From a virus: a DNA stretch of 22,130 nt. A program made the translations under genes and the position numbers. Below are positions 16,107 to 17,369 of this stretch, piece after piece. The notes beneath the pieces are model-generated. The model did not search any database. It was not told the origin of the DNA and worked only from the letters and a program-made list of their open reading frames with translations. Every line of letters starts with the position of its first letter. Within the stretch, counting starts at the first letter, position 1. The stretch lies in IMG/VR virus record IMGVR_UViG_3300037264_008088, one strand, 5' to 3'.

Positions 16107-16781
16107 TCATTCTGTTTCGGTTATGGCCTCGCCGCGCAAGGCCTTCTTCTCGGACGCTGACAAGTCCATGATGCTCAATGACTTGAGAATCTTGTTCAAT
16201 TCGCCTTGTCCCATCAAGGGATCCATGATTTCCAACCCCACCACGCCTTGACTGTCGTAACCGACTAGCACGTCGGCATTCTCGTGGCAGCCATAAACGT
16301 ATTCGAGAGTTTTGCGGGCCGCCACAAACGGCTTGGTGCTACGCTTCAAGCTGGCGACGACGGGCTTGCCGTCGTCGCCATAGTACACGGAAAGCCTGCC
16401 GACCTTCTCGCTCCTGGCCCCTGACCTTATGCAGGCTGCGTACGCCGCCTGGAACGAAACCCCCAACCTCATATATAGGTCGTGCGGGTGGAACCCCTGG
16501 ATGAAGTCAACGCCGCCGCTGGCGTGGAACACCTCGGCATCACGGCGGCAACGCCCGCACAGCGTGATGCCGTTCTCCAAGGCATGGCCCCCGTATGGCA
16601 TCGTGCCGTCTTCGGTTATCTGGTGGACTTGGAGATCGCCTGTGGTGCCGGCGCCGTTACTGCACGCCCTGCAACCCTTGCCGTCTCGCTCAAGGCAAGC
16701 CTTGACGAAGCGTTCGCGTGCGGTGTCTTTGTCTGGCTGGCTCATGCGGTTCAGGGTACCACGATCAAGCAACTTGGTCAA
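16107..16781 (-). CDS. HNH endonuclease (paralog 1), 18 nt upstream of the vault-protein gene
   Basis: HNH signature C-x2-C ... LQVHQITEDG ... HALENGITLCGRCR. Track start is a TTG at 16779..16781; an internal ATG lies at 16745. Confidence 0.75.
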   Translation of the reverse strand: MTKLLDRGTLNRMSQPDKDTARERFVKACLERDGKGCRACSNGAGTTGDLQVHQITEDGTMPYGGHALENGITLCGRCRRDAEVFHASGGVDFIQGFHPHDLYMRLGVSFQAAYAACIRSGARSEKVGRLSVYYGDDGKPVVASLKRSTKPFVAARKTLEYVYGCHENADVLVGYDSQGVVGLEIMDPLMGQGELNKILKSLSIMDLSASEKKALRGEAITETE

Positions 16782-16784
16782 GCA

Positions 16785-17369
16785 TCATTTTTTGTAAAAG
16801 GCCAGTTGTGGGAACGCCAGGTCCGACGGGAGTATCCAAAGCGCGTTGGGAACATGATTGTGACAAGCCAGCCCAAGCCGCGCCAGGTCGTCGTCGAACT
16901 TCACGAGGACTCGGTCCCGAAGCTCGTCGCTGGGGGGATGGTCTTCCAGCACCACCCCGCCCCTGCCAAGGAGGAGCGGATAGTTCTCCGGGCCAGGCTC
17001 ATGTGAAGATTGGCCAAAGCCTCCGAGGCCGCATAGCATGACGCGCCCATCGCAACCACCAAGCCTGGAACTGGCGGCGTAAGCCTTCTGGAAGGATGAC
17101 CCTATGCGCCCGTACAATCCCCGCGGGTGGAAGCCCTCGACGAAGTCGGAGCCGCCGCTGGCGTGGAACCTCTCGGCCTTCTTGTGGCACCACTCGCAGA
17201 GCGTGATCCCGTTCTCGGGGACGTAGCCGCCGTTCGGCATCTCGCGCCTGTCCGTTATGTGGTGGACGTTCAGGGCGACGCTCCTGCCGCAGGCGACGCA
17301 CGCACGCCCGTCGCGGGCGAGGCACGCCTCGTTGAACTCCCTGCGGGCAGCCTTCTTGGCCTTGCTCAT
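16785..17369 (-). CDS. HNH endonuclease (paralog 2), tandem to paralog 1
   Basis: C-x2-C ... LNVHHITDRREMPNGGYVPENGITLCEWCH ... FHASGGSDFVEGFHP, with high nucleotide identity to paralog 1 across the HNH core. ATG 17367..17369 preceded by GAGGAAG; the track extends to a TTG at 17456. Confidence 0.75.
   Translation of the reverse strand: MSKAKKAARREFNEACLARDGRACVACGRSVALNVHHITDRREMPNGGYVPENGITLCEWCHKKAERFHASGGSDFVEGFHPRGLYGRIGSSFQKAYAASSRLGGCDGRVMLCGLGGFGQSSHEPGPENYPLLLGRGGVVLEDHPPSDELRDRVLVKFDDDLARLGLACHNHVPNALWILPSDLAFPQLAFYKK

Follow-up and report, generated by a model that had tools for sequence, protein, structure and literature searches.

An old tandem pair of HNH paralogs, one a predicted nuclease and the other a predicted pseudo-nuclease, upstream of a vault-protein-like gene in a probable huge-phage fragment

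The IMG/VR virus record IMGVR_UViG_3300037264_008088, a stretch of 22,130 nucleotides that was analysed in full and that we call the window, contains on its minus strand two adjacent genes coding for small HNH-type proteins, here named HNH-B (the upstream copy) and HNH-A (the downstream one). HNH genes are among the commonest accessory genes of phages. The reading that we favour, with a probability of about 60%, is that the pair derives from an old tandem duplication after which HNH-B remained a working nuclease and HNH-A became a maintained pseudo-nuclease that does not cut, with no indication of a coupling to a terminase or to the neighbouring gene for a major vault protein (MVP) homolog. 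A small free-standing zinc-ribbon HNH gene of the jumbo or huge phage type would have been duplicated in tandem long ago. The upstream copy would have kept all catalytic and zinc residues, and with them DNA nicking or cutting, and would have gained an orphan tail of 90 residues, possibly through a lost stop codon. The downstream copy would have kept the fold and the zinc site, lost both histidines and acquired at its C-terminus a domain of about 100 residues, which its one known relative (P0002) conserves. It could then bind nucleic acid without cleaving it and either modulate or target HNH-B or have a binding role of its own. A previous sequence-only reading of this DNA had located the two tandem same-strand open reading frames (ORFs) correctly (16107-16781 and 16785-17369/17456) and had taken them for recently duplicated endonucleases with different targets.

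The HNH-A gene (16107-16781, minus strand) codes for 224 aa when read from TTG 16781, and the fact that the family alignment begins at Met13 suggests ATG 16745 as the likelier start, which would give 212 aa. Its degenerate HNH-like core (residues 13-121, positions 16419-16745) keeps the zinc cysteines C37/C40/C75/C78 and the structural N70, and is still predicted as an HNH-like fold that AlphaFold2 (AF2) models with confidence. However, Q54 (codon 16620-16622) stands in the column of the general-base histidine and R79 (codon 16545-16547) in that of the metal-ligand histidine. The first column, that of H37 in HNH-B, is His in 238 of 262 family sequences, and the second, that of H62, in 243 of the 262. 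In all, HNH-A departs from the family at seven near-invariant sites (Q54, E57, D58, Y63, H66, A67 and R79), which show at least 90% agreement in an alignment with 55 members (consensus LDAHHITDRxEMPNGGYVxENGIxLCxxCHxKAExFH) and 72-93% in the wider set of 262 sequences. Each of the two histidine losses corresponds to a single-base difference (CAG vs CAC and CGC vs CAC). The difference between VHHI and VHQI pointed out in the sequence-only reading is real and turns out to be the key distinction between the copies, with Q in place of the catalytic His. The roles of these residues were mapped in two ways, namely by the alignment to the IscB HNH domain, in which the His before Ile is catalytic and the His after the second CxxC is the last one of the motif, and by the H-16-N-9-H spacing, which is identical to that of H93/N109/H118 in the HNH protein of phage GVE2 (PMC5304195). 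In the latter, H93A abolishes nicking and H118A takes away 83% of the activity (PMC5304195). Since the general-base His, the metal-ligand His and five other near-invariant sites are changed, we infer that the canonical HNH mechanism of cutting is not available to HNH-A. A Gln at the base site together with an Arg at the metal site would be expected to keep the phosphate contacts and to block hydrolysis. The titles of PDB entries for an engineered H42Q form of the HNH-like nuclease SciA of phage T5 bound to DNA suggest that a His-to-Gln change serves to keep DNA binding while removing cleavage. Against Pfam, NCBIfam and PADLOC, HNH-A gave no family at E<=0.01 and no curated HNH model was matched. 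Its matches to HNH families in PHROG were weak, the best being phrog_24030 (2e-6), and it is 35-47% identical to the members of the small HNH family described below.

HNH-B (16785-17369, minus strand; 194 aa from ATG 17369) presents the opposite picture and is predicted to be an active HNH nuclease of the zinc-ribbon type that carries an orphan tail. Alternative starts exist, the JGI call being of 209 aa from 17414 and the longest reading of 223 aa extending up to 17456; a Shine-Dalgarno-like GAGGAAG motif lies 3 nt 5' of ATG 17369. The catalytic core (residues 1-104, 17058-17369) reads C24/C27...H36-H37...N53...C58/C61-H62, so that H37, N53, H62 and the four cysteines make up the full zinc-ribbon HNH signature HH…N…CxxCH, with the 16- and 9-residue spacing of the GVE2 protein (PMC5304195). 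Every residue that is near-invariant in the family, both in the 55-member alignment and in the 262-sequence set, is retained. HNH-B passes the gathering threshold of the Pfam HNH family PF01844 (32.0 bits, cut-off 21.4, E=1.3e-7) and matches 19 PHROG families, nearly all of them HNH, with phrog_24030 (HNH-RNA ligase) as the best (5e-16). Its core is modelled by AF2 with predicted local distance difference test (pLDDT) values of 92-98, and Foldseek retrieved Cap5, EcoKMcrA and Cas5-HNH with probabilities of 0.97-0.99. More than 100 members of the small HNH family share 50-61% identity with the protein. From these conserved residues, HNH-B is most likely a working metal-dependent enzyme that nicks or cuts DNA. 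The C-terminal tail (residues 105-194, 16788-17057) is of another nature. No homolog was found for it, all matches covering about 53% of the query or less, and it has no Pfam match. It is almost devoid of predicted secondary structure (pLDDT 43-53) and is probably disordered. Its codon-position GC is also atypical (GC1 0.74; GC3 0.69 vs 0.91 in the core). HNH-B reads TGC where members of the family usually stop, one change away from TGA, and the tail may, as a speculation, be a read-through extension produced by the loss of the stop codon.

The two cores are clearly related, and their duplication is old. The N-terminal ~104 aa share 56% identity (BLASTP, E=5e-36), and in a codon-aware alignment the DNA of the cores is identical at 193 of 300 positions (64.3%), falling to 51% at third positions. 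NG86 estimates for the cores were dS ~1.02 and dN ~0.38. The age follows from this DNA identity and from a dS of about 1, that is, from saturated synonymous sites. The nearly identical core and the long stretches of nucleotide identity that had been described, and with them the recent date of the duplication, did not survive the nucleotide alignment, whose longest exact run is 19 nt. Codon-level statistics also ruled out a recent duplication or gene conversion, the same codon being used at 37 of the 58 identical residues when 30.4 are expected from the codon usage of the window. The C-terminal regions are indeed unrelated, as had been proposed. BLASTP found nothing between them, hhalign gave a probability of 0.2%, and local alignments of DNA and protein scored no better than shuffles. 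The same comparisons discarded a candidate DUF2283-like motif shared by both C-termini.

These data leave very little room for the view that both copies are active, recently duplicated HNH endonucleases whose C-termini set their target specificity and that work with packaging or structural genes. It has in its favour that both ORFs are intact, that an HNH-type domain is common to both and that the C-termini differ, variable C-terminal extensions being a trait of the family. With a dS of about 1 and 64% nucleotide identity, a HNH-A lacking both histidines and missed by all curated HNH models, and a HNH-B tail that is an orphan modelled at low confidence, it already appears largely refuted as far as the sequences can tell. 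The partnership with a terminase or structural genes fares no better, since a check for terminase, portal and capsid families among the ORFs of the 22-kb window gave none, and none was seen beside the family members inspected elsewhere. The proposal of two endonucleases with different specificities thus fails on the side of HNH-A, which has neither the general-base nor the metal-ligand His.

As to their origin, the sequences indicate that HNH-A and HNH-B are paralogs. In a phmmer search of 1.84 billion representative proteins, the best match of HNH-A after itself and P0002 was HNH-B with 107.6 bits, the next one reaching 80.4. By contrast, many outside proteins, at up to 61% identity, resemble HNH-B more than HNH-A does, and the branch of HNH-A is long (mean distance 1.13 vs 0.69). 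In neighbour-joining trees the two came out as sisters with bootstraps of 48/100 and 44/100. The simplest account is that the gene was duplicated locally long ago and that the two copies then diverged unequally. Alternatively, two selfish free-standing genes of the homing-endonuclease type might have been inserted independently at one spot, one of them being now in decay. The variety of unrelated settings, chromosomal as well as phage, in which family members occur, the other MVP loci that lack the pair, the weak bootstrap of the A+B node and the different GC3 of the two copies (0.75 vs 0.91) would all fit such insertions. We nevertheless consider them unlikely, given that HNH-B is by a wide margin the nearest relative of HNH-A in so large a library, that no convincing flanking repeats or target duplications hinting at a mobile cassette were found around the pair, and that no NUMOD, AP2 or similar DNA-binding domain, as used by homing enzymes for targeting, was detected in either protein. 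No near-identical DNA was found in known phages.

The loss of catalytic residues raises the question of whether HNH-A is simply a functionless, decaying pseudogene. Seven substituted conserved sites, a long branch and very few homologs could be expected from such a gene. However, the ORF runs uninterrupted for 224 codons, and its codon-position GC fits coding, C-terminal domain included. Neither the four zinc cysteines nor the structural Asn have been lost, and the core is confidently predicted. Furthermore, its one ortholog-like relative, P0002, a protein of 159 aa truncated at the N-terminus, comes from a second independent metagenome, is 69% identical to HNH-A and shares both the Arg equivalent to R79 and the C-terminal domain, which is 62% identical over its length and conserved in blocks. 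Decay therefore seems quite improbable. Because the ORF is intact, its codon GC is that of a coding sequence and P0002 keeps the Arg and the C-domain, we infer that HNH-A is a maintained pseudo-nuclease and not a pseudogene.

The C-terminal domain of HNH-A (residues 122-224, 16110-16418) is predicted as a beta-rich module followed by two helices, with strands at 123-185 and helices at 194-215 (AF2, pLDDT just 39-68). No homolog beyond P0002 was found in any of the collections searched, and neither a sequence match in PDB nor a fold match was obtained. There is a hint of DUF2283 (PF10049), below threshold in both HNH-A (12.3 bits, E=0.2) and P0002 (14.1 bits, E=0.056), the cut-off being 23. Long matches of HNH-A to four loci (L145, L097, L113 and L159) were discarded as spurious, as they run through stop codons.

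Several points weigh against the scenario of an old duplication into a nuclease and a pseudo-nuclease. The activity of HNH-B and the inactivity of HNH-A are both predictions from conserved residues, and H53, H86 and the new H66 lie near the HNH-A site, so that HNH-A may have an unconventional active site. The sister relationship of the copies has a bootstrap of just 44-48%, with HNH-A on a long branch. The model of the HNH-A C-domain is of low confidence. The support for co-transcription (see below) consists of short gaps and a simple motif scan, and that HNH-A acts as a partner of HNH-B is something that may be the case. Finally, P0170, a degenerate member from another locus, has no active copy within 8 kb.

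Actually, degenerate members are recurrent in this family. Without counting the N-terminally truncated sequences, about 20 of the 262 have lost either or both of the catalytic histidines. The residue found in place of the general-base His is Q, L, R, C, P, Y or V, and that in place of the metal His is R, A, L or T, most often Arg (8 cases). The combination Q+R of HNH-A is found in two unrelated members, P0201 and P0206. Since the nearest neighbour of most degenerate members is an active protein, they would have lost the histidines independently. Two other elements carry active and degenerate copies close together. In one (L137/L139) they are 3 kb apart, and in the other (L044/L045) the distance is about 1 kb. 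In L045 the degenerate copy (YH...CxxCR) occupies 831-1217 and the active copy 2272-2568, and close to them is a small ORF of 72 aa (2817-3035) that matches DUF2283 weakly (15.5 bits, E=0.02) and echoes the weak signal in the HNH-A C-domain. That a dead copy always lies beside a live one was rejected, the one usable degenerate protein, P0170, having no active copy nearby. It has to be kept in mind that the sampling of paired loci is biased toward active copies, the final homology search having returned almost only active ones. P0170, P0201, P0206 and the L045 copy at 831-1217 resemble HNH-A in keeping the zinc cysteines and the fold-defining helices while the histidines are replaced. These are no near relatives of HNH-A, their nearest neighbours being active, and none has the HNH-A C-terminal domain.

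By itself the locus belongs to an ordinary HNH family and offers a modestly interesting pair of a live and a dead paralog. Its modest interest lies in the fact that this jumbo-phage family repeatedly yields dead members that keep the zinc-stabilised fold, and that here the live and the dead copy adjoin and the dead one has a conserved extra domain. One could imagine a selected function behind the repeated, independent conversion to Gln/Arg forms that would bind without cutting. The dead protein, which here has a new C-terminal domain, adjoins a live copy and would share a transcript with a vault-protein gene, might protect phage nucleic acid against HNH nucleases as a decoy or immunity factor, or might be a targeting subunit through which the live copy becomes a nickase specific for a site or a strand, perhaps in relation to the neighbourhood of RNA-repair and vault-like genes that huge phages show. 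We hold this idea to be rather improbable as it stands. Were dead copies to be regulators, decoys or targeting subunits, they would be a new type of player in the nuclease conflicts between phage and host or between phages, and would provide natural HNH scaffolds that bind DNA without cutting it.

The small HNH family to which both proteins belong has a core of ~107 aa, which occurs widely in metagenomes and mostly bears the annotation 'McrA'. HNH-A and HNH-B are similar to it across its full ~105-aa core, including the C-terminal 'DLYxxIGSS' helices. In a reference phage collection all 15 matching records were jumbo or huge phages of 143-735 kb (LR756501/LR756503, LR756511 and LR745206 among them), and many of the matches in IMG/VR come from contigs of 200-540 kb. 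The 'RNA ligase' of Acinetobacter phage ME3 and that of HGTV-1 include the domain, and P0124 and P0128 are fusions of HNH, HD and kinase domains (HD-Pnk). HNH-Rnl2 fusions of jumbo phages had been reported before, and the DNA of the host or of rivals was suggested as the target of their HNH (Iyer et al. 2021, PMC7824862). The C-terminal extensions vary, and other members bear yet different ones. The neighbourhoods of the family consist of long same-strand runs of small genes without assigned function, together with R2K ATP-grasp, ADP-ribosylglycohydrolase, RNase HII and fragments of tRNA synthetases. Membership in a defence system was discarded, PADLOC giving just weak matches to the generic HNH components PtuB and PDC-M01B. 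Other arrangements of the domain were seen as well, such as a protein of 982 aa (P0136) with 11 separate stretches matching the HNH core, apparently a multi-HNH repeat protein, and a locus (L064) with three HNH-core matches within 4 kb.

Directly downstream of the pair, as had been noticed before, lies the MVP-like gene (13482-16088, minus strand; 868 aa), with Pfam matches to MVP_shoulder (1.7e-24) and Vault_3 (1.8e-8). The intergenic gaps are short, 39 nt between HNH-B and HNH-A if the latter starts at ATG 16745, and 18 nt between the HNH-A stop and the MVP gene, a gap that holds the Shine-Dalgarno motif AAGGAGGAG at 16092-16100. A simple motif scan of the minus strand from HNH-B to the MVP stop revealed neither promoter-like nor terminator-like sites, and just past that stop there is a terminator-like hairpin (13422-13457, minus strand) with a 16-bp stem that includes 11 GC pairs. 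Since no internal promoter- or terminator-like site was found and the hairpin follows the MVP stop, HNH-B, HNH-A and MVP are probably read as a single transcript with MVP as its last gene, for which the hairpin would be the likely end.

Such an arrangement could be taken to mean that the HNH pair and the MVP form a functional module, for instance one for processing or tethering nucleic acids in connection with a vault-like shell and RNA repair. The gaps of 39 and 18 nt and the sole terminator-like site being after the MVP agree with this, and in LR756500 an HNH-Rnl2 fusion and an HD-Pnk gene are found 1-2.2 kb upstream of the MVP. The window also has an Rnl2-like ligase (10641-11264) and Y-RNA-like elements. 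However, a member of the HNH family occurs at 10 kb or less from an MVP gene in just 2 of 80 viral and in none of 80 bacterial MVP loci, both viral cases being HNH-Rnl2 fusions. In LR756501 some 166 kb separate the MVP gene from the HNH gene, and in the loci L004 and L096 no HNH was found near the MVP. A module is accordingly hard to believe in, and the unusual HNH-vault pairing that had called attention to this locus is not supported as a meaningful one, as the adjacency is not conserved and looks incidental. Nor is the MVP homolog a virion structural gene in any demonstrated sense, as had been assumed. Because this neighbourhood is not conserved, a coupling of the HNH pair to the MVP or to a terminase is not indicated, and the old duplication into a predicted nuclease and a pseudo-nuclease remains our preferred account of the pair.

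MVP relatives as such are not rare. At least 120 were confirmed in IMG/VR and at least 321 in a collection of bacterial and archaeal genomes, the bacterial ones including Nannocystis, Vulcanimicrobiota, Riflebacteria and Cytophagales. The MVP of the window is up to 54% identical to the bacterial relatives vs up to 48% to the viral ones. Phage MVPs had already been described, from just two phages (bioRxiv 10.1101/2023.11.10.566534, 2023). The locus L095 of the 462-kb huge phage LR756500.1 shows at 274-8460, in this order, R2K ATP-grasp, AAA+ ATPase, HNH-Rnl2 fusion, HD-Pnk end-healing enzyme, small membrane protein, CoaB-like protein and MVP, so that an RNA-repair cassette immediately precedes the gene for a vault protein. 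HD-Pnk-like genes were found at 10 kb or less from the MVP in 7 of the 80 viral MVP loci.

The rest of the window, with nearly all its genes on one strand, codes for a cysteinyl-tRNA synthetase, a DUF4326 protein, an R2K ATP-grasp, the Rnl2-like ligase as well as a tRNA; hallmark genes of virions were not found in it. This content fits an accessory region of a huge phage, and the window is probably a fragment of one. The cysteinyl-tRNA synthetase (20132-21934, minus strand; tRNA-synt_1e, 2e-104) is of full length and is followed directly by the DUF4326 gene, both being typical of accessory regions of huge phages. The Rnl2-like RNA ligase (10641-11264, minus strand; PF09414, 30 bits) is short, and a 38%-identical homolog of it in another locus (L007, 7853-8784) directly adjoins an HNH of the same family. 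In a stretch poor in ORFs there are two tandem structured RNAs (9059-9185 and 9274-9353, both minus strand) with folding z-scores of -4.45 and -3.19. They match the Y RNA-like Rfam family YrlA below threshold (26 and 24 bits vs a gathering score of 69), and the alignments show the tRNA-mimic module, with the T-arm GCGGAUUCAAAUUCCGC followed by the D-arm GGUAGCACAAUGGUAGUGC. No Ro/TROVE gene was seen in the window. A tRNA-Leu with anticodon GAG is located at the contig end (3-81, minus strand; ARAGORN, 48 bits with the Rfam tRNA model). In addition, an ORF of 117 aa (11683-12036, minus strand) matches an ATP-grasp domain just in part (CPSase_L_D2, positions 22-75) and abuts one of 355 aa with no matches (12038-13105, minus strand); together they may represent a split or highly diverged ATP-grasp enzyme.

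Compared with the HNH proteins already characterized, the pair differs from the packaging-associated ones in both context and architecture. The HNH proteins of phage GVE2 (PDB 5H0O) and Gme (4H9D) adjoin the terminase and cos and assist packaging, while the pair of the window has no terminase context, and the terminase-adjacent location of HK97 gp74 and GVE2-type proteins was not found for it within the 22 kb. Both window proteins carry C-terminal regions that are extra with respect to GVE2 and Gme, and HNH-A lacks the equivalents of H93 and H118 of GVE2. The resemblance to EcoKMcrA, IscB and Cas9-type HNH proteins is only at the domain level, as the window proteins have no RuvC, PLMP or reader domains, and the NCBIfam score in this comparison (35.7) is far under the 175-bit cut-off. 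The HNH-Rnl2 proteins of jumbo phages such as ME3 and HGTV-1 (phrog_24030) are the best PHROG for both window proteins, and their N-terminal HNH domain forms one sequence family with them. These fusions and those of HNH with HD-Pnk share with the window family the same distribution in jumbo and huge phages. Unlike them, the window genes are free-standing, with C-termini that are neither ligase nor HD-Pnk, and the Rnl2-like ligase of the window is a separate gene located ~5 kb away.

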